A DNA stretch of 64,000 nucleotides from Eledone cirrhosa. Lineage: Eukaryota. The stretch lies in the NCBI GenBank assembly GCA_964016885.1, contig OZ024745.1, positions 49,414,001 through 49,478,000 of the forward strand. Reading direction: 5' to 3'. The translations under genes and the position numbers were made by a program. Of this stretch, positions 9,975 through 44,917 are shown in pieces; positions within the stretch are counted from its first letter, which is position 1; every line of letters starts with the position of its first letter. A model generated the notes under the pieces. That model searched no databases and was not told the DNA's origin. It saw nothing but the letters and a program-made list of their open reading frames with translations.

Positions 9975-10065
<91 letters not shown>

Positions 10066-10339
10066 AAAATATATAAATACCAAACGCAGAAAATAACTGT
10101 AATAGCAAACAACTGATATAAAAAAACGGAGCCAGCCGGCATTATGTAGAATCGAACCCCGTTTCTATCGAATACGGCCGTTAAACTAGGGGGCAACTAA
10201 CTACGAATTCCGTTAAATTTAACGTGCTATACTAAATAGCTTATGAATTATTGAAGTGTTTGTGTGATTTGAAATTTGGAAATTACAAATGCGGACAGAA
10301 TTATAATCGACAGGCTAAATAACAACAAAAACAATGATA

Positions 10340-10892
10340 ATGGTTTCTTATATAGGCACAAGGACAGCAATTTTGAGGGAAGGGAAAGTCAATTAAATCG
10401 ACCCTAGTGCATTACTGGTACTTTATTTTATCGACTCCGTAAGGATGAAAGGCAAAGCTAACCTCGGCGGGAACTCAGAGTCTAAAGAGATAGAACAGCG
10501 CAATGGTATTTTAGCTGACGCTCAACCAATTGAGTCAATCTACCACTCTCGCAAATCACATATTAAAAAGGTAAAACGAAATCGCACCGACCTATTCAGT
10601 TTTAAAATTTATTTAAATTAACACTTTTCTTTTGTCCCGTAACTCCTGCTAGAGTCGTAGGGGCCTGAGTACAGCAGATTTCTCCCAGATAAAGATAGAA
10701 AGTGAGAGAGGGGAAATGCGAAAGAGGTATAAAAGAAGAATCGACCACAGTACTTGAAAAGTACTTTTTTAATCGACCTCGAAAAGATGAAAGGCAAAGT
10801 TGACCGCGGCGGGATTTGAACTCAGAGAGCAAGAACGAATAACTTAAAGCATTCTATCCAATGTTCTAACGACTCTGCCAGTTTGCCTCCTA
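10340..10892 (-). mobile_element. Two minus-strand SINE copies, main family
   Basis: GTAAGGATGAAAGGCAAAG(C/T)T(A/G)ACC...GGGA..TGAACTCAGA-type blocks at ~10440 and ~10785. Confidence 0.75.
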
Positions 10893-11559
10893 AATTAATA
10901 TTTCAATGCGATAAATATATTTTACTGACTGCTGCAACTGCGGTTATTAAAAGATAACGAAGTTGTCTTACATCTTAACTTTAAATTCGCGATCGTAAAG
11001 TTACATATTCGCTTTAGTTTGAAGTAGAAAAACTATTTTAAGTTAAACTATAAACTTGGCCAAGAACCAGTTACCTTTTTTATTGAGAGTCCTATCGTAT
11101 TATCTTTGTTGGCCACATTCCCCCATTAATAACCATATATATAAACTTTGTTTCTAATTCTAAGTTGTTTCTATTGATTTCATAAATCATTAATGAAATC
11201 TATGAATAACCAGAGAGTGGTTCCCTCGACTAACTTGTTGAACTGCTATTTGATAATAGATGCGGGGGCACCAATAACAATAGCAGCTATGACGCAGTGC
11301 AAAACAACTGCAATAATCGAAAATACTTTCTAGTTTGGGGAAAAGTTGTATTATATAACAGGAAATTAGGAGCTTAAAACAATATTTGTGTAGATTCCAT
11401 TTCTACTTAGATTCATATATTTACTTACCTTGTTTTCATCCCAACAGGGGTGTGTAGAGTGGCGGGGAGAGCCAAGCTGGGACCCTGCTGATATACATAA
11501 AATATTACACCATCATCATATCAAAACATTTCAAAAACAAGTATTTTTATCAAATCAAA

Positions 11560-11614
<55 letters not shown>

Positions 11615-11805
11615 GGCTAAACAGGGATTCTTGTTACACTGGAGTTTCGCCTGTTTATCACAGGGTCATCAGACAAGAACGGATACGTATATATATAATT
11701 CTTATATATATATATATGTGTATGTATGTATGTATGTATGTATGTATGTATGTATGTATGTATGTATGTATGTATGTATGTATGTATGTATGTATGTATG
11801 TATGT

Positions 11806-12359
11806 ATGGTCGGGTCGTTGGCGACTAAACTGGCAACCCCACCAATGTTTCTTGGTGAGGAGGGTGACATTGGACATTCTGCAGGACTAAAAACAAAACC
11901 TGTCAAAGGGCAAAGGAGCTCTTAAGAGTCAATGGCCATCCAAAATCACCGGGAGAGATGACCCCTTAGCCTTTGTCAAGGCAGAATTCTAGGAGAAGGA
12001 AAACTCTGATATAACACCTGCAACCCTGATGGTATCCAATGATGTTGACTTGTTCTTCTTTTTGGTAAATATCATCTTGGTTAAGAGAGTGGGACTGGCT
12101 TTGTGCAGTGCCTTTGTTCACTATAAAAGCTTCACGGCACAGGCATTTCTGTATATCTGGAGATCTCTCTGCACTTGTCGTCACATGGTACCATGGGCCC
12201 AGCACTATGTGCCAATAATTGTCACAAGTGTAGTGTGTGTACCAGAGTTTTCAAGTAGCTGGCTGGACTAAAAAGTAACACTCGTTCAGCGCATCGGTAG
12301 GGGTTCTCCTACATGGATATAAAGTAGTGGCCGTACTCGAAAACGAGTTGGCAGCCACC

Positions 12360-12360
<1 letters not shown>
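11806..12360 (+). mobile_element. Non-coding repeat resembling an RTE-type LINE 5' UTR, copy 1
   Basis: Highly similar to the reverse complement of 43363-43974. Contains CTAGGAGAAGGAAAACTCTGA, a motif I recall from RTE 5' UTRs. Flanked by (TATG)n and (TA)n. Confidence 0.65.
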
Positions 12361-12423
<63 letters not shown>

Positions 12424-12590
12424 GGAGTAACAGATTATTGTTATAGGTAGTCCACTTAAGTGTAGTCCAGTTATGGTACTCCGGGTAGTGGATGATATCA
12501 ACGCTTGGCTAAGTTTGACCCAACAAGGCGTTTCCATAGTGATGCTGCGAGCACGCGGTAATTTCTATGTTGTTAACACCAGGAGTAATG

Positions 12591-12944
12591 ATAAATCAGG
12601 AAAGAAGAGTGACGTGGTGTGCTATACAAAAAAGGTTTTTAATCTCATTGCTGACAATTGTTTCTCTGAACTGGTAGGTCTAGAGATCGCTACCCGCTTA
12701 TTTTCACGTTATTCGATCACCAATACAAAGTTATAACCAGTCAATTCATCGGAGCTTATGAGCTTGTTGATTCTCACAAGCTCCGATGAATTGACTGGTT
12801 ACAACTTTGTATTGGTGATCGAATGACGTGAAAACAAGCAGGTAGAGATCTCTAGACCATCCAGTTCAGAGAAACAATTGTCAGCAATGAGATTAAAAAC
12901 CTTTTTTGTATAGCACACCATGTCACTCTTCTTTCCTGATTTAT
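12591..12944. repeat. 354-bp near-perfect palindrome (172-bp arms, 10-nt loop)
   Basis: ATAAATCAGGAAAGAAGAGTGAC...GGAGCTTATGAG, loop CTTGTTGATT, then CTCACAAGCTCC...GTCACTCTTCTTTCCTGATTTAT. Only a few mismatches. Confidence 0.97.
12780..12885 (+). ncRNA. Type I hammerhead-ribozyme-like fold with enlarged helix II loop (mirror copy on - strand at 12650-12755)
   Basis: Helix I GCT/AGC; core CCGATGA; helix II TGACTGG/CCAGTTCA; GAAA; helix III C-AATT-G with palindromic loop; GTC cleavage triplet. Confidence 0.6.
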
Positions 12945-13015
12945 ATATACTTATATATATATATTCACATACATATATATACATATATATATATATACAT
13001 ACATACATACATACA

Positions 13016-13061
<46 letters not shown>

Positions 13062-13429
13062 TATATATATATCTATATAGATAAAACGGAATCGGTTGTA
13101 AAATGTAGAAATGCATGCGGTTACACAGACAGACGTCTGTGTAACCGCATGCATTTCTACATTTTACAAACGATTTGCACCAAATTTCATACATAGATTT
13201 CTGAAATCCTATTACGCGTCGTAGGCTATTTTATTTTTCCGTACATCGATTGTGCCACCCCCCGGGGGGGGGGGGGGAGATAACCTCTTAAGCCTCTCGC
13301 TTGGAGTCAACAGCACTACTGTATAAAGGCCCCATAATTCCTGCAGTTTACCTCCCATCTTCAACACCATTAATCTTTTGTTTGCTTATGGCCTACAAAT
13401 AAGTTTGCAGGCATGCAGTTGCGCAGAAA

Positions 13430-14250
13430 TTCAGGTAGGGGACCCCTTGGGGGTCAGTAAACCGACTTGATGAATGTTGAAGTTGATATCATCAATGCAA
13501 CAAAACGTCATAACTGCTTGAGTTGGTGTATTGATTACCCATGGCTTATAAAGGAAGGTGAACACATGAACTTTACTTGAACTTATTAAGGGGACCCCTG
13601 GGGTAGTAAGCCCCTTCGACTTATCTATTGAAGTTCATATTAACGCTGTATTAGTACCTGATAACTTTACCGGACACATTGGTTACCCATTGCCTAAAGA
13701 TGATGTTGAAGACACTATCTATACCCGGAACAAGCAAGGGGACCCCCAGGGGGCAGTAAACCCTGGCGAGTCATTTATTGAATTTGGCTATTGTAATGCA
13801 ACAAAGTGTCATAGCTTCGATAATTAGTAGTCCAATAAAATGAATTTCGACTTAGTTGTTATTCATGTACTACAGATGAAGATATAGTGAGGCACATTTA
13901 CTTTCATTTCAATTCAGCAAGAGGACCCCCTCGGGGACAATGAGCCCAATTCATTAACCTATAAAAGTTCAAACTGCCACAATAAAAAAGCACCATAACC
14001 TCGGGAGTTTATACTTGATTCTTACAAAAGCTAAACGAAATGGTTATTGCCTGCCATAAGATAAAGCACCACACATTCGTTATCACTTGAATGTTGCAAG
14101 GGAACCCCCTAGGGAGGGCAGTAAGCCCCTTTTGGACCACTTTTAAAGTTCATATTATGGTTGCAGCAAAGCATTTCAACTTCTGGAAATAAAAGTCAAT
14201 TTAAACGAAAGTTGACACATCGGTTACTCATGTCCTAGAAATAGAGTAGC
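13430..14250. repeat. Five diverged 150-185 bp tandem units in the Helitron 5' region, each with a GGGACCCC...GGGG hairpin core
   Basis: Cores at ~13437, 13588, 13738, 13921 and 14099, each followed by CAGTAA(A/G)CC-like and GAAGTT-like motifs. Confidence 0.8.
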
Positions 14251-14319
14251 GAATTTTTAAATCCCCCTGACTTAACTTTAGTTTGTTTAGTTAACTTTAG
14301 GATAATTGAATTTAATTTT

Positions 14320-14578
14320 GTACCCGGTTGTCTCCCCCGTGTAATTGCACCACAATTAAGTGCGGAATGGGGAGTTAAATTTTTTTCATTGAACTTTGGC
14401 GTCATTTCACACTCCTAACCAAGAAAGCGCGATTTAACCCAGGTGTAAATTTTAACGCCTACTGTATTTGGATTGTGCTATTTTACACACATGCCTAAAC
14501 TGTGCGAATGATTGATTAGTTTTTGCACCCGGTTGCCTCCCCCGTTTAATTGCACTTCAATTAAGTGCGAAATGGCGA
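14320..14578. repeat. ~50-bp direct repeat, ~205 bp apart, inside the Helitron
   Basis: CCCGGTTG(T/C)CTCCCCCGT(G/T)TAATTGCAC..CAATTAAGTGCG at ~14323 and ~14528. Confidence 0.85.
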
Positions 14579-15330
14579 CCTCTGGCCAACCACACATCAG
14601 TGAGTTGTGTTCAGTAGATTTCATCCCACTTATTTGTATTATCTAACCAATCAGACAACTCGAATGTTGTTCATTGAACGAAATCATTCCTATTTATATC
14701 GGTCAAGTCCGACCTAGGATCACACTTTGGCTTTTGACAAGTGGTAGGTTTTTTACATGCGTACTCTCATAAGCTATCCCATGTTTCTGAAACGCATGTT
14801 TCTTCAGCATTTGTCACCTTAAAGGAGATTTAGTTAATGTGTTTATGGTCATAAGGTTCCAGTTTATCATGCTGTGATTTTTCGACAATTTTTGCCTGTA
14901 TCCTTTCAATGGTTAGTACTTAATTATTGCTATGTTCGAACTGAACAAACATACTTACACTTAATTACCTACCACCTTTTAATTTCCTTTATCACACTAT
15001 TTAATTTCACACTATTTAATTTCCTTTATCACAGGTAGTCCGTACGCTGCGTTGCCCCTAACTTAAAACCTGAAATTTGACTGGCACACAAAATCTTGCA
15101 AAACATACCCACTTTCTCAGACCACATAGATTTATCACATTTTTTCACAATTTATATCCGTGTTTAGATTTGCTTACTTAAACGTTATTCGTCCACTATT
15201 TATCGTTCTCTCTGGTTAATTTTCTAAAAACAATGCCCTCCCAAGAAAAGAACTTTCATGGGTCGATTACACCGAGTAACATATTTTTTGTTCCCCGGTT
15301 CTAAGTGTCATTTCATGGTTTGTTATATCC

Positions 15331-15512
15331 CGGCAGTATCGGTAGAGGGTCGGGCGCCATGCTTTCCAGCATAGTTACATCCCTTTACGGTCTGAGTTCA
15401 AATCCCGTCGAGGTTAACTTTGCCTCTCATCCTTACGGCGTCGATAAAATAAAGTACCAGTAATGTACTGGGTAATTGCTGGCCTTGTGCCAAAAAGTAG
15501 GAACAATTATTA
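15331..15512 (+). mobile_element. SINE (main family) nested inside the Chapaev3 element
   Basis: GGCAGTATCGGTAGAGGGTCGG...GAGTTCAAATCCC...GCTGGCCTTGTGCC...ATTATTA. Near-identical to 45105-45298. Confidence 0.9.
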
Positions 15513-15724
15513 AAAAAATACTATTATTTAATCAGAAGTTTGGGTTTGTGGTCAGGAGTTTGATATTTCGAAATTTTCATATTTTTCAAGAAAGAACACA
15601 TTTAAAAAAAATTTATCGGTTCATATAATTAAATCAACAGAGTATATATTCATTTTATTACACAAGCTTATCAAAAGCAAACAAGTAAAAACAAATAACA
15701 GTTATAAAGCAACTTATACACGTC

Positions 15725-16799
15725 AGAAATTACTGGATTTCCTGGATTTGCGGTGTAGTCCAGGTCGCATTCCCGCACTAGCCCCCAGATATAGTCCCCA
15801 TCACTTTTTCATTGTAGTGGCTCTGGTACCTCCGTTATATCTCTTTCACATCTTGGTGGAATCGTTCGCCTTGTTCTTCCGAGTAGGCGACAATATTGTC
15901 CTTGAATTCTTCCAGGTGAGCGTCCAGCATATGGAGTTTAAGCGACATCCTGCATCCCATGCGCCAAAAGCCTTTATCAGATCCTGCACCAGTTGCTGGT
16001 AGTTTTCAGCTCTGTAGTTGCCCAGGAAGCCGTTAACAACTGCCTTGAAACAGTTCCATGCTGTTCTCTTAATCCTATTGAGCTTATTGGAGAACTCGGT
16101 TGACTCAAACACCTTCTTTATCTGAGGTCCAACAAAACATCCACCTTTGATTTTGACCTCAGATAACTTGGGGAAGAACTCAAGAAGGTACTTAAAAGCG
16201 GCTGATTCTTGTTTGAGAGCCTTCACAAACTGCTTCATCAACCCCAACTTAATGTGCAGTGACGGCATGAGCACAATCCTGGAATCAACCAGTAGCTCCC
16301 ACATGACATTTCGGGTCCCAACTTCAAATTCTGTTCGCTGCTCCCAGTTCTTTCTTTTGTAGTGGTCAGAGGTGGCTCTGCTGTCCCAAAGGCAGAGGAA
16401 GCATTGGAATTTGATAAAGCCTCCTTGGAGTCCAAGCAGGAAAGCCACCATCTTGAAGTCTCCAATGATTTCCCAATTGTACTGGTTGTATTGCAGAGTT
16501 CCCAAGAGGACTTTCACACTGTAGTAATCTTCCTTCGGGCAGACTGAATGAGCTAGGGGCAGTGTCGGGAACTTGTTTACATTGTGGAGGAGGACAGTCT
16601 TCAAACTTGTGGTGGAGCTGTCTATAAATAGTCGCCACTCCTTGGGCACAAACGGCACCCCAATAACGTCAAACAGTCTAGGCACGTCATGGCAGAAGCA
16701 GAGGCCATCCCTAAGAGTGTAAAAGCCTGAGAAAGGTTCGTGTCGACTTCTCTGACTTGTCACCTGCACTTCCTCCTTGACCAAGTTCCACTGCTTCAT
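15725..16799 (-). pseudogene. Chapaev3-type DDE transposase, N-terminally deleted and frameshifted
   Basis: WRLFIDSS, IIGDFKMV, CFLCLWDSR, LHIKLGLMKQFVK and FVGPQIK. After a frameshift near 15960 it reads MGCRMSLKLHMLDAHL...EEQGERFHQD, which contains the third catalytic residue region. Confidence 0.88.
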
Positions 16800-19700
16800 C
16801 TTGGAGACGAATGCTTAAAACACAACTTACTCTTTATTCAGGGTGCGAAAATTCAGTATCAATAAATCTCTTTAATCCACTTTTTAACAATTTTATACTT
16901 TATTGCACTTTTATAATTTTCTTTAGGTATTACTCTTTATTTTATAATTTTAATTTAACCTGAAACATATATAAAAAAATCATTTAACAAATTTAGCAAA
17001 TTAAACTTACATACAACGTAAAATTCAGCATACAAATAATTCTATTGAATAGCTTAGAATTTTTACAAACCCCACTTTTAACTGTTTAATAGCACTTTTT
17101 TTTTTATAGATTTGGGACCTAAGCAACACAAAAAAGTGATTACAAGCCAGTAACAGAGAAAAAAATTATTTTTGTTACACGGTGTTATCTAATGATGCAA
17201 GTAGGTCTAAGCGAAGGCGTCTCACTGAAGATGTAAATGCGACTGCGATCAGGCTCTCACAGAATGCTGTGCAGACGTCAGCTGCAAGAACGGAGGAGGA
17301 TGACAGTCGGCGTGAACTTCGACGGAACAAAGATGCTGCCGCGACTGCTGCAGCTCGCGCTCGAGAGGATGAAGGACGACGAGCCGTTCGACGAAGCAGG
17401 GACGCCACTGCAACAGACCCTGCTCGTGCTCGAGAGGATCAAGGACGACGTGCCATTCGACGAAGCAGGGACGCCACTGCCACTGCTGCTGCACGAAACA
17501 CTGAAACCATAGAGCAACGACGTGGCCGACTTCTGCAAAGTGAACAGCGGCGATCATCGTTACGTGGCATTTTTGAATTTTTAGGCCTTGCAATTCACGA
17601 TGGTTGTTGAAGGTCTTTAACTAAGACCCCTCCTCCGACTATGCCGTTCATGCAGATATTCAAATTGGGGAAATGACCTCTACTTGCCAGTTTTGCCGTA
17701 CGAAAAAGTGGCCAGGGGAGAGAGATGGAATGTGCTGTTCAAACGGTAAAGTTAGATTACCTCCTATTCACGATCCTCCAGAGACATTGCAACTCCTTTT
17801 GGAGGAATCATCGAAGTTTCCGCGTAATATCCGCCGCTACAATTCCGCGTTTCAGATGACATCCTTCGGAGAAAAGTTTGCCTCGGAACGTGGGTTCATG
17901 CCAACTTTCAAAGTCCAGGGGCAGATCTACCACTTGATGAGGTCTATTCAGCCTCTGGTAGAAAAGGGGCCTCAATTTCTTCAGTTATACTTCGTTGGAA
18001 ACTATCAGGAGCAGGCAGAGATGCGAAACTCTATTTCGTCCGAAACTAACATTGAAACCATAAAACTTCAAGAAATGCTTCATGACAAAAACAGTTATGT
18101 TCGGAGTTTCAAGTACGCTTTGGAAATAGCCACCAAGCCAAACTTTAGTGTGGTCATACATGCTGACCGAAGGCCTTCTGGAGAACACGCTGGTCGGTTC
18201 AACGCACCAACATGTAATGAGATTTCTGCGGTTATTTGTGGTGAACAGCACAAGAGAGATATCATTCTAAAGCACAGTGACAGCACATTACAGCGTATCA
18301 ATGAGACACACAGGTCCTACGATGCACTCCAGTATCCATTGCTATTTGTCAACGGCGAGGACGGATACCATTTCGGCATTCCTCAACATTCAGCAGACAA
18401 TGGTGAGGTACATCTTAGCAAAACTGTCACCTGCATGGATTTCTACGCTTTCCGATTTATGGTAAGGTACAATTCATTCTACCATCTACACCGTTCTCGG
18501 GACCTTTTCCAACAATTTGCTGTTGATATGGCCGTTAAAAGAAACTTCGACCTGAATGCTACATTCATCTACGCGATGGAATTAACAACGACATATCCCC
18601 AGACAATTGAGGGCAAGTGTGTATTTTGCCTTAAACGTTCACAGGGGGACGCCGATACATGCACGAGAGGACTCAGGATGCCATGACTTACGTACGACAT
18701 TATGGGCGCCCCGACCTTTTCATAACGTTTACATGCAATCCTAAGTGGAAGGAGATTACAAACGAACTGTTCCAAACGCCAAGACACAGGCACGATCTCA
18801 TAGCAAGAGTGTTTCGCCTGAAATTATCCAAATTAATGGATTTATTAAAGAAAGGACAGGATTTTGGGCCTGTACACGGTTGCGATATGTACACGGTTGA
18901 ATGGCAGAAACGAGGGCTGCCGCATGCCCATATCTTGATTTGGTTGGTTACAAAAATCAGTTCAAACTACATCGACAAATTAATTTCTGCCGAACTACCT
19001 GATCCGTCGATTGACAAGGACCTCTTCTCTATAGTCACATCAAACATGGTCCATGGTCATTGCGGACACGGACTCAATATGAAGTCCCCGTGCATACACG
19101 ACGGAAAGTGTATAAAACGATATCCCAGGCCGTGTTTACAGGAAACACAGACTGGCGGTGACTGATATCCGTTGTATAGGCGCAGGAGACCTGAAGACGG
19201 TGGGTTCACAGCAAAAGTTGGCGAACGCGAAATCGACAACAGCGGGATAGTGCCATATTGCCCGCTCCTCTTGAAAGCATTCAACGCCCATATAAACGTA
19301 GAATTTTGCAACTCAGTAAAATCAATTAAATACGTTTGTAAGTACGTAAACAAGGGATCGGATGATGCCGTCTTTGGTCTTCGTCATGAAAACAGTAGAG
19401 ACGAGGTATCTGACTACCAAGCAGGCCCATACATTAGCAGCAATGAAGCCTTTTGGCGCATTTTTGGCTTCTCACTGCACCAACGACACCCCGTCATTAA
19501 ACAATTTGCCGTTCACCTTGAAAACGGTCAAGGGGTGTATTTCAACGATGCAACAGCTGCTCAGCTAACGATCTCACCAAAGGAAACTACACTCACCGCT
19601 TTTTTCAAACTTTGTCAACTCAACGACTTCGCTCGAACTCTGCTGTATTCTGAAATACCGTCTTACTATACATGAAACCGGACAAAATGGCTACGAAGAA

Positions 19701-22019
19701 AGTAGGGCAAGAGGTAGTTGAACATCCAGGTATCAAATTCGACAATTGCCTTGGGCGAGTTTGTACGGTCCACCCTACCCAACACGAATTCTTCTACCCG
19801 CGACTTCTGCTTCATGAGGTAAGAGGGCCGACCAGCTTCACTCATCTGAGAACCGTTGATGGATACGCCTGCGGAACGTACAGGGAAGCCTGCTTGAGGC
19901 GTGGACTTTTAGAAGATGACGCACAATGGGATACAACCTTGACGGAAGCTGCCATCTCACAATCATCCCGTAGTCTAAGAGCACTTTTTCCTATCCTCTT
20001 GCACGTCTTTATGGCAAAAGTTTAAAGATGATTTCGCAGACGAATATAGGCGTCTCGCTCAATTGCAAATCCAAATTTAGATGTCGGGTCTTCAGACGTT
20101 ATATATAACAGAACTCTGATCGATATTGAAGACAGAGTGGCTTCAATGGGCGGAGATGTCTTGGAGAAATATGGGCGTCCGCAAACACTTCGAGATGCAC
20201 CATCTGACATTCCCAACGACATTATACGTGTAACGTCATATGATGTCGACGAACTCAAAAGCTATGTTGAAGAAAATGAACCAAAACTTCTAATGGATCA
20301 AAAGCAAGCCTACAACATTGTCGTTGATTCCATCCGTAATCGGGGAGGGGGTATATTCTTCCTGGACGCACCTAGAGGCACGGGCAAAACATTTGTAATC
20401 AAACTTTTACTCGCTGCAGTGAGGCAACACGGAAACATTGCATTGGCCGTGGCTTCTTCCTTCATTGCAGCAACTTTGCTTCCTGGTGGCAGGACGGCCC
20501 ATTCTGCCTTCAGTCTTCCTCTCCACGTGGCATTATCTGAGACACCAACGTGCAACATCAGCAAGTCTTCCGGAAAAGCACTGGTTTTAAAGCGCTGCCT
20601 ACTAATTGTTTGGGACGAATGCACAATGGCCCACAGGCGGCTTTCGAGGCATTAGACCGGTCACTCAGCGACATCAGGGACTGTCAAGAACCAATGGAAG
20701 GTGTCACTTTATTATTATCTGGGGACTTCCGACAGACTCTGCCTGTAATCCCAAAAGGTACGCGGGCTGATGAGTTTGGTGCATGTCTTAAGGCCTCCCC
20801 ACTTTGGCGTTATGTGAGAAAGCTGACGCTTACAACAAACATGAGAGCACAGCTGCAAGGTCAACTGCAAGACATCAGCGGGTTTTGCTGCTGCCATTTT
20901 GTCGTTGGGAGATGGCAAAGTCCCACTCGACGGAGATGGTGCAGCGGACCTCACAGGGATTTTCAGATGCGTTAAGTCAATTGCTGAGTTACGGACGTCT
21001 GTTTCTCCTAATCTTGAGGAGAACTACACAAATCAAGAGTGGTTGTATGAACGCGCAATATTAGCTTCGAAAAACCACATAGTTGGAAACCTCAATAAAA
21101 TACTGTTCTTGCCTGGAAACCTGCACGACTACAAGTCCCTTGACTCTATCGCTGATCCGGACGAAGTTGTTAATTACCCCCACAGAATTTCTTAACTCCA
21201 TAGACCCTCCCGGATTGCTACCACACTTACTGCGACTTAAGAAAGGTGCCCCTTCCATGCTCCTCAAGAATTTGGAACCCCGAAGGCTTTCCAACGGAAC
21301 GCGTCTGGTCGTCCAAAAGGCGATACCTCATGTTATTGAGGCAACAATACTTACATTATGTGGTAAGGGGGATACTGTCTTCATACCAAGGATACCTCTC
21401 ATTCCTTCCGGTAAAGACATTCCTTTCACATTCAGAAGGCTGCAATTCCCTCTCCGGCTCGGTTTTGTCATGTCGATTAACAAATCACAGGGTCAGATGC
21501 TGACGGTCGTAGGGCTTAATTTAGAAGAACCGTGATTCTCCCATGGTGAACTATATGTTGGCTGCTCTCGAGTGGGGAGCCGACATAACCTATTTGCTTT
21601 GGCAACTCACGAGAAAACCCAAAATATAGTCTATAAGGAAGTTTTGTAGGCACCCCATCCGCCAACAAGTAATTGCTGTTTTTTTTTTGTATAAGTGCTT
21701 ACATTTGCTGAATCCGTGTGTTATTTTTGTCCCTTTGACAATACTACGTACGCCCCTGAGGTTGCTTTTGCTATACGTTATAAATGTTCAATGTCTCCGT
21801 TTTCCGCATTTATATGTTGCTATTGCGCTTTGCAATCGATGTTCCGTAGTTTTAACCTAATTAATCTACTTTTCCCTACATCTTATTTACACATTTTTTG
21901 ACATTCCAGCGTGATCTTGCCAATGCCGTTTTTGTTGCCACCGACTGTTACATGCTTTTCTAGGTTACAATCTCAAATAACAAGCAAAGCAAATACGACA
22001 CACCAAAGTGGTGTGAAGC

Positions 22020-41300: not shown

Positions 41301-41460
41301 TGTGGTGATTTATCTTATGGTAGGCAATAACCATTTCGACGCGTAATAGGACTTCAGAAACCTATGTATAAAATTCGGTGAAAATCGGTTGTAAAATGTA
41401 GAAATGCATGCGGTTACACAGACAGACAGACAGACATCTTCTGTTTTATATATATATAGA
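38322..41460 (-). mobile_element. Internally deleted Helitron, sister of 13072-22514
   Basis: A|TCTATATATATATAAAACAG ... GCTGGGTACCTCTGCTAG|T. Keeps the N-terminus MPPKKRTFIGRLSNDASRS and the helicase C-terminus ...NIVYKEVL. Lacks the equivalents of ~13222-14036 and ~17645-21105, and lacks the Chapaev3 insertion. Confidence 0.96.
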
Positions 41461-42379: not shown

Positions 42380-43362
42380 CTGATAGATATAAAGTAATAC
42401 ATTCATAATGCATATGGTATAGTTTGAGGGAGTATTAGCTGCTATTTTTATTATATCTAGCTATCATGTAAAGGCTCTACCATATAGGCCTATATAATTG
42501 GTATATAATTGCTAGCATATATACAATATATGCTAGCAATCAGCTCCTTAAAAGAACTCTTTGGTGCACTTGTGTATCGGTTGGTGCGCTGCAAGATAAC
42601 ATTAGTTCCATCGCGTAGGAGTAAGATTCGATTTTAAAACGTGAAAAAATACCAACTGACAATCGCAAGAAAGTTTGTATTTAACCCTCCTCTGTTCGGC
42701 CTCCCGTCGGTATTGGATGAAAGGGGTATTTTATTTGCCTTCTTTGAAAAAAGAAAGTGCGTCTAATAGGCTGGCAAGCAAAGTAAATTAAAATAAAAAG
42801 ATTAGTTTCTGATTTAGACATAAAGTCAACAATTTGGAGGAAGAGGAAAGTCGATCAAATCGACCCTAGTGCATTACTGGTACTTTATTTAATCGACCCT
42901 GTACAGGGTGGTGGAACTGGGGGTGGGACTACCAAAACATACATCTATTTGTATATGCGCTACAATGTATATACATGTGTTTATCGCATATCTATTTTTT
43001 TTATATCTTGGTTGATATTTGATAATACCAGTTAAACTAATCACTACAACGAAATTTATCAAATTTGCCCCCCACCCCACCAATTCAGAAATACTTCCAT
43101 TACCCCTGATATAGATATATAGAGAGAGAGCAGTAAATATTAGCCAAGGCAATATGAAGTTGTACATAAATTTATTCAGGTATCATACATATTTCTCTGC
43201 GGTCTACAATTAGGTGGTATGATATCCTCATAACGAACGGTCAAGGTTCGTCAGCAATAAAAGATAAAATTGAGCTTCTAAATTGTTTTCGATACTAAAG
43301 ATCGGCATATAGCCAGTTGCCATTAAGCTGTATATATGAACATATGTATGTATGTATATATA

Positions 43363-43971
43363 TGGTGGCTGCCAACTCGTTTTCGAGTACGGCCACTACT
43401 TTATATCCATGCAGGAGAACCCCCACCAACGCGCTGAACGAATGTGACCCTTTAGTCCAGCCAGCGACTTGAAAACTCTGGCACAAACACTACACCTGTG
43501 ACAATTATTGACACATAGTGCTGGGCCCATGGCACCATGTGACGACAAGTGCAGAGAGATCCCCAGATATAAAGCAATGCCTGTGCCGTGAAGCTTTTAT
43601 AGTGAGCAAAGGCACTGCACAAAGCCAGTCCCACTCTCTTAACCAAGATAATATTTACCAAAAAGAAGAACAAGTCAACATCATTGGATACCATCAGGGT
43701 TGCAGGTGTTATATCAGAGTTTTCCTTCTCCTAGAATTCTGCCTTGACAAAGGCTAAGGGGTCATCTCTCCCAGTGATTTTGGATGGCCATTGACTCTAA
43801 AGAGCTCCTTTGCCCTTTGACAGGTTTTGTTTTTAGTCCTGCAGGATGTCCAAAGTCACCCTCCTCACCAAGAAACCTTGGTGGGGTTGCCAGTTTAGTC
43901 GCCAACGACCCGACCATGGAACAGGTTGTACTGGGATACATGTTACCAGTAGCACCAACGGGTGACCTGAC

Positions 43972-44870: not shown

Positions 44871-44917
44871 TGCTCCGATGAATCCAGACATCCCTCTAGA
44901 AGAAACAATCGTCAGCA
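44871..44917 (+). ncRNA. Minimal type I hammerhead-ribozyme-like motif
   Basis: TGCT-CCGATGA-A-TCCAG(ACATCCCT)CTAGA-A-GAAA-C-AATC-GTC-AGCA. Helix I is TGCT/AGCA, with a GUC site. Confidence 0.65.

Follow-up and report, generated by a model that had tools for sequence, protein, structure and literature searches.

The near-perfect palindrome at positions 12591–12944 of the window (the whole stretch of 64,000 nt of Eledone cirrhosa DNA that was analysed) is very probably, with a probability of about 0.88, an inverted, doubly 5'-truncated insertion of a Penelope-like element (PLE) of the Hydra clade. The 354 nt hairpin that had been claimed from the letters of the window alone (hereafter, the sequence-only reading) is borne out: the inverted repeat has 13 mismatched pair positions, nine in the stem and four at the centre, and the predicted minimum free energy of the palindrome is −282 kcal/mol for the + strand and −291 kcal/mol for the − strand. 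The insertion, however, comprises 522 nt (12423–12944) and not 354 nt, because a family sequence of 168 nt, the PLE "tail" (12423–12590, − strand), prolongs the left arm. It is flanked by (TA)n target tracts, from 12363 to 12422 on the left and, as a (TA)n-type tract, from 12942 to 13083 on the right. The left arm (12591–12762, − strand) and the right arm (12770–12944, + strand) are both 5'-truncated copies of the pLTR, the right one ending at a short, tail-less 3' end, and the two truncated 5' ends are joined by a filler of 7 nt (12763–12769) that has no counterpart upstream of the arm in the sequence of the family. The layout is head-to-head, with no tandem array at the locus, and the window copy itself (12423–12944) lacks an ORF. 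At many loci, matches to the tail sequence (92–96%) directly adjoin the arm. The place of the tail in full-length copies is between the pLTR and the start of the ORF, and it leads into the ORF in the loci L032 and L113. In both loci it ends just before a TTAG, about 40 nt ahead of the ATG of the ORF, so that the tail may overlap the end of a 5'-UTR intron, as in other PLEs.

The parent family was found by a search of the 3.0 Gb genome with the right arm, which yielded 2,431 first-look candidates; 40 of these were scored and are 93–96% identical, with 95–96% for the best of them. Upstream of the arm, the longer copies run into a GIY-YIG ORF, the endonuclease (EN) ending about 800 nt before the hammerhead motif. 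In L113, a 704 aa open frame with the motifs RWK, DKT, YRDD, CxCX5C and YIG lies between two direct, hammerhead-bearing pLTRs that are 3,550 nt apart. Altogether, a single ORF encoding RT followed by a GIY-YIG domain at the C-terminus is linked to the pLTR of the arm in three loci (L113, L032, and L114), which is the linkage that the sequence-only reading had proposed to look for with an arm search. Its statements that PLE pLTRs carry hammerheads with a palindromic helix III, and that pLTRs occur in an inverted arrangement, likewise hold for this locus.

RWK, DKT, CxCX5C and further features are listed as diagnostic of Hydra-clade PLEs in section 11 of PMC8557442 (Craig et al., 2021). The family shares these three motifs, the insertion into (TA)n, and the direct or inverted pLTRs with a tail at one end, and by eye the L113 ORF resembles the published Hydra alignments. 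Pfam returned 0 families for the 704 aa ORF, so that the assignment to Hydra is motif-based and not phylogenetic. Further likenesses to the published description of the clade are the order of RT and C-terminal GIY-YIG, the (TA)n targets, the presence of inverted 5'-truncated copies, and a type I pLTR hammerhead, in most cases with one unpaired letter on either side of helix II (PMC8557442). In addition, the short end in the window shares its short terminal motif with the beginning of the Hydra-1_Obim consensus. The differences concern size and the ribozyme. The unit of about 3.55 kb from pLTR to pLTR (L113) compares with generally less than 3 kb in Hydra PLEs, and the tail of about 168 nt with 30–40 bp (PMC8557442). 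The Hydra cores in File S2 of that study are all CUGANGA, whereas the core is CCGANGA here, and helix II has about 3–7 bp with short loops in File S2, whereas the helix II region has 81 nt here.

Each arm contains, one per strand, the complete type I hammerhead layout with a CCGAUGA core that the sequence-only reading had described, at 12780–12885 on the + strand and at 12755–12650 on the − strand. In both arms the order is GCU-CCGAUGA-[81 nt]-GAAA-C-AAUU-G-UC-AGC. In the + motif, helix I is formed by 12780–82/12883–85, the core occupies 12783–89, the basal helix II, which contains a single bulge and, at its base, an A-A mismatch, 12791–98/12861–69, the GAAA 12871–74, and the 8 nt helix III palindrome, as expected for dimer-type PLE hammerheads, 12874–81. 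The GUC ends at 12882, as claimed, and the cut is predicted after this position; for the − motif, with the same core and long helix II, it is predicted 3' of the C at 12653. Compared with the consensus CUGANGA/GAAA/NUH, position 4 is a C instead of a U (U4C) in both arms, and the remaining core letters match. What had been taken for a loop of about 60 nt closed by helix II folds, according to the prediction, into further stems, that is, a structured extension. Helix I of the U4C motif has just 3–4 bp, and in the isolated arms the predicted pair probabilities of helix I and of the basal helix II are 0.10 or lower.

A comparison of positions 10000–16000 with Rfam at E ≤ 10, a check that had been proposed for the hammerhead model, gave 56 matches, all under their gathering scores, and no hammerhead family; the miRNA matches among them were rejected as generic hairpins. 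In the same region, at about 11629–11678 on the − strand, there is a type I hammerhead layout with a canonical core and a helix I of 6 bp, located within a short insert between TA tracts; it is probably another PLE end. Rfam missed this canonical-core motif as well, and the blank result is therefore ascribed to insensitivity of the model.

Exact patterns with fixed core and fixed helices I and III were counted in the whole genome, and the reversed controls gave 0 matches throughout. The pattern with a short helix II matched 8,583 times, including 396 matches with U4, while the pattern with a long helix II matched 1,707 times with C4 (CCGA) and 1,038 times with U4 (CTGA). Altogether, about 9,900 exact matches carry C4, versus 1,434 with U4. 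For the long form, 1,707 CCGA matches versus 0 in the reversed control exclude chance. C4 is present in the family of the palindrome and also in short-helix families with endonucleases that are 36–43% identical to its own; the core, the cleavage triplet and the spacing recur across families at 36–52% EN identity, and subfamilies with U4 and with C4 coexist with the same frame. The distribution of C4 in distant families and U4 in a closer long-helix family (about 50%) suggests that position 4 changed more than once. For the long form, an origin of U4 by CpG decay was largely rejected, as CCAA, the product on the opposite strand, matches 29 times, compared with 1,038 matches of CTGA and 1,707 of CCGA. 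C4 is accordingly a state of the source elements and not a result of decay.

Two of the related families deserve a description of their own. One of them is represented in the window by a motif with a CCGAUGA core and a short helix II at 44872–44916 (+ strand); a genome search for this family (loci L065–L094) gave 2,192 first-look candidates, and it is tied to a Hydra-type endonuclease in L086/L087. The other one (L096–L105, L132, and L133) is the long-helix family with U4, in which the helix II region of 85 nt folds as a long stem and the endonuclease is about 50% identical to that of the palindrome family. Moreover, several unrelated, canonical-core hammerhead-like motifs have a helix II of 45–95 nt (L022:216, L023, L033:2241, L034, and L092:2303), and thus the expansion of helix II recurs in this genome.

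Covariation, which had been named as a check for helices I and II, gave a mixed picture. In the short forms (n = 32), one pair of helix II reads G-C in 17 sequences and A-U in 14, and the covariation score of helix II, a value inflated by relatedness, exceeds those of all 500 shuffles. In the long forms (n = 31), 28 pairs, including the stems inside the presumed loop, are paired in 95.4% of cases versus 94.6% after shuffling. Double changes occur in 3 of the 28 pairs, and 52 of 500 shuffles score as high in this test, which is likewise inflated by relatedness. The exchange of a pair supports helix II of the short form, the support for the long form is modest, and helices I and III are fixed by the pattern.

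The minimal PLE hammerheads of Cervera and De la Peña (2014; PMC4209133) are similar in being type I with a short helix I and a larger helix II, and in having a palindromic helix III with predicted action as dimers. However, the core variant reported in the accessible text is U3-A8 and not U4C, and a structured helix II extension of about 60 nt is not described there. The same substitution is known as a natural variant of a viroid (Ambros and Flores, 1998, as cited in PMC3088659), which is reported to be slower in vitro and to retain infectivity. There, U4C occurs as a variant within a plant RNA replicon, whereas here it is the majority state, with about 9,900 copies in several families of animal retrotransposons. 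Searches of literature listings and of the accessible texts returned no mention of U4C in PLEs. The U4C hammerhead with its long helix II, as well as the strict one-tail rule described below, look like new variants. U4C, regarded as rare in nature, predominates here with thousands of PLE copies, and descriptors that require CUGANGA would miss such hammerheads. The matched subfamilies with U4 or C4 and with short or long helix II constitute a natural series for the role of the PLE hammerhead.

Ribozyme activity of the U4C motif is plausible. The hammerhead of the parent pLTR is likely to be a slowed, dimer-dependent ribozyme that acts on sense transcripts, perhaps with the assistance of a protein. 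An alternative that we regard as somewhat unlikely is that the U4C motif is a relic without catalytic activity, or that it serves a purpose other than catalysis, such as RNA dimerisation via the 8 nt palindrome or protein binding. It would agree with the statement that U4C in the viroid "considerably decreases activity in vitro" (PMC3088659), with the short helix I, and with the fact that the monomer fold is not predicted. Moreover, element 5' ends show no accumulation at the cut site, a possibility that L032 had suggested: in arm coordinates, the 5' ends of upstream pLTRs at 30 loci lie scattered between −438 and +310, with a single one at +115. Against a relic speak the recurrence of core, triplet and spacing across families with 36–52% EN identity, the coexistence of U4 and C4 subfamilies with the same frame, and the viroid variant, which is reported to remain functional in vivo (PMC3088659). 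Cleavage by PLE hammerheads is dispensable in vitro, according to PMC11167929.

The head-to-head shape of the insertion is ordinary in this genome. Among 100 listed of the 1,707 long-form CCGA matches, neighbours closer than 10 kb form 19 head-to-head, 0 tail-to-tail and 3 direct pairs. The gaps in the head-to-head pairs range from 2 to 6368 nt, and the gap in the window is 24 nt. Of the 30 loci from the arm search, eight have an adjacent inverted arm, with a complete second ribozyme in three and a broken one in five. All 19 head-to-head pairs (L135–L153), which were picked by the ribozyme pattern and not by the type of their ends, combine a tailed with a short end, as does the window. The tailed end is mostly at +167/168, and both ends are at or beside (TA)n. 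Among 13 further pairs with two readable ends, from the short-helix families, the long U4 family and one older lineage of the same family (four other loci were uninformative), 12 combine a near with a far end, the two differing by about 105–170 nt, and L133 is the lone exception. Inverted 5'-truncated PLE copies and a one-sided tail have been described (PMC8557442, PMC3846280), and pairs of hammerheads on opposite strands, 100–700 bp apart, were noted in PMC4209133. A long, easily scored tail at exactly one end of each inverted insertion examined constrains the mechanism of PLE integration.

Twin priming with one cDNA per start site is the likely route to this structure. Both cut strands of the target would prime reverse transcription, each from a start site of its own. 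The cDNA begun at the far site would include the 168 nt tail, and its partner would begin at the near site. With the two cDNAs ending a little upstream of the hammerhead and linked via the 7 nt filler, the palindrome would be a by-product of a twin-primed insertion into a (TA)n tract. Such a route fits the single tailed end in 19 of 19 inverted pairs. According to PMC11167929, a purified PLE protein can nick both strands and extend them, with RT starting at two sites that flank the tail. That work reports no difference between the strands in RT start, and therefore the strict one-tail rule is not predicted by it. Alternatively, the same element might have been inverted by self-priming or fold-back, along the lines of the antisense-template idea in PMC3846280. 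The junctions in L140 and L153 are symmetric, and the two window arms share one variant that is absent from 41 other arms, as a single template would produce. However, the window arms also carry different letters at sites where each of the two letters is widespread in the family, and in four pairs (L138, L139, L145, and L148) the arm with the tail is shorter than its partner. Simple cDNA fold-back cannot produce such pairs: a cDNA that starts from the short site lacks the tail, and no copy can be longer than its template. We thus consider self-priming or fold-back an unlikely origin.

An extension of twin priming, quite speculative and improbable in our view, would assign the one-tail rule to the RNA. 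The U4C motif might have been retained as a tuned-down ribozyme that mainly serves to pair two element RNAs via the 8 nt palindrome of helix III, with an RT dimer then priming the two target strands asymmetrically, one from each start site. If so, RNA pairing would explain why the rule is so strict (19 of 19), and PLE hammerheads would be RNA dimerisation signals.

The sequence-only reading had assigned a function to the palindrome, namely as an ORF-less foldback module that toggles between self-cleavage and long dsRNA. Both ribozyme motifs are complete at this locus, a few similarly tight copies exist (L106/L153 with a gap of 2 nt, L012, and L014), and a read-through RNA is predicted to form about 170 bp of dsRNA. 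Nevertheless, such a switch is very improbable. The family is autonomous, with an ORF for RT and GIY-YIG between direct pLTRs in L113. The junctions form a continuum of gaps from 2 to 6368 nt, the second ribozyme is incomplete in five of the eight loci with an adjacent inverted arm, and two ribozymes on opposite strands cannot dimerise in cis. Whichever strand is transcribed, the antisense arm comes before the ribozyme, and each examined pair of hammerhead helices I and II has a probability of 0.00 in the complete transcript, so that there is no predicted second state to switch to. The hammerhead here is accordingly predicted, from these folds, to be inactive in any RNA spanning both arms. The non-LTR retrozymes described in the accessible part of bioRxiv 10.64898/2026.07.22.740005 are also short, ORF-less and PLE-derived and contain a type I hammerhead, but they are head-to-tail tandem arrays, whereas the palindrome consists of the head-to-head truncated ends of an autonomous family.

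The contigs of X1–X3 (one sample) cover the family, but no contig or read was seen to span the locus. An assembly foldback artefact, which a near-perfect palindrome in repeat-rich DNA might suggest, is nevertheless excluded by the unequal arms (nine stem differences), the tail on one arm only, and the same asymmetric design in 19 of 19 pairs.

Several other repeats are present in the window. A dispersed repeat of 587 nt lies directly to the left of the target TA tract (11806–12392) and recurs, 95% alike, at 43331–43917. Broken frames at 17140–21692 resemble, by their motifs, a Helitron Rep/helicase. A separate hairpin with arms of 41 bp is found at 13090–13175, with a related copy at 41337–41427, and the region from 13432 to 14157 contains five diverged units, spaced by 148–183 nt, that have the motif GGGGACCCC in common.
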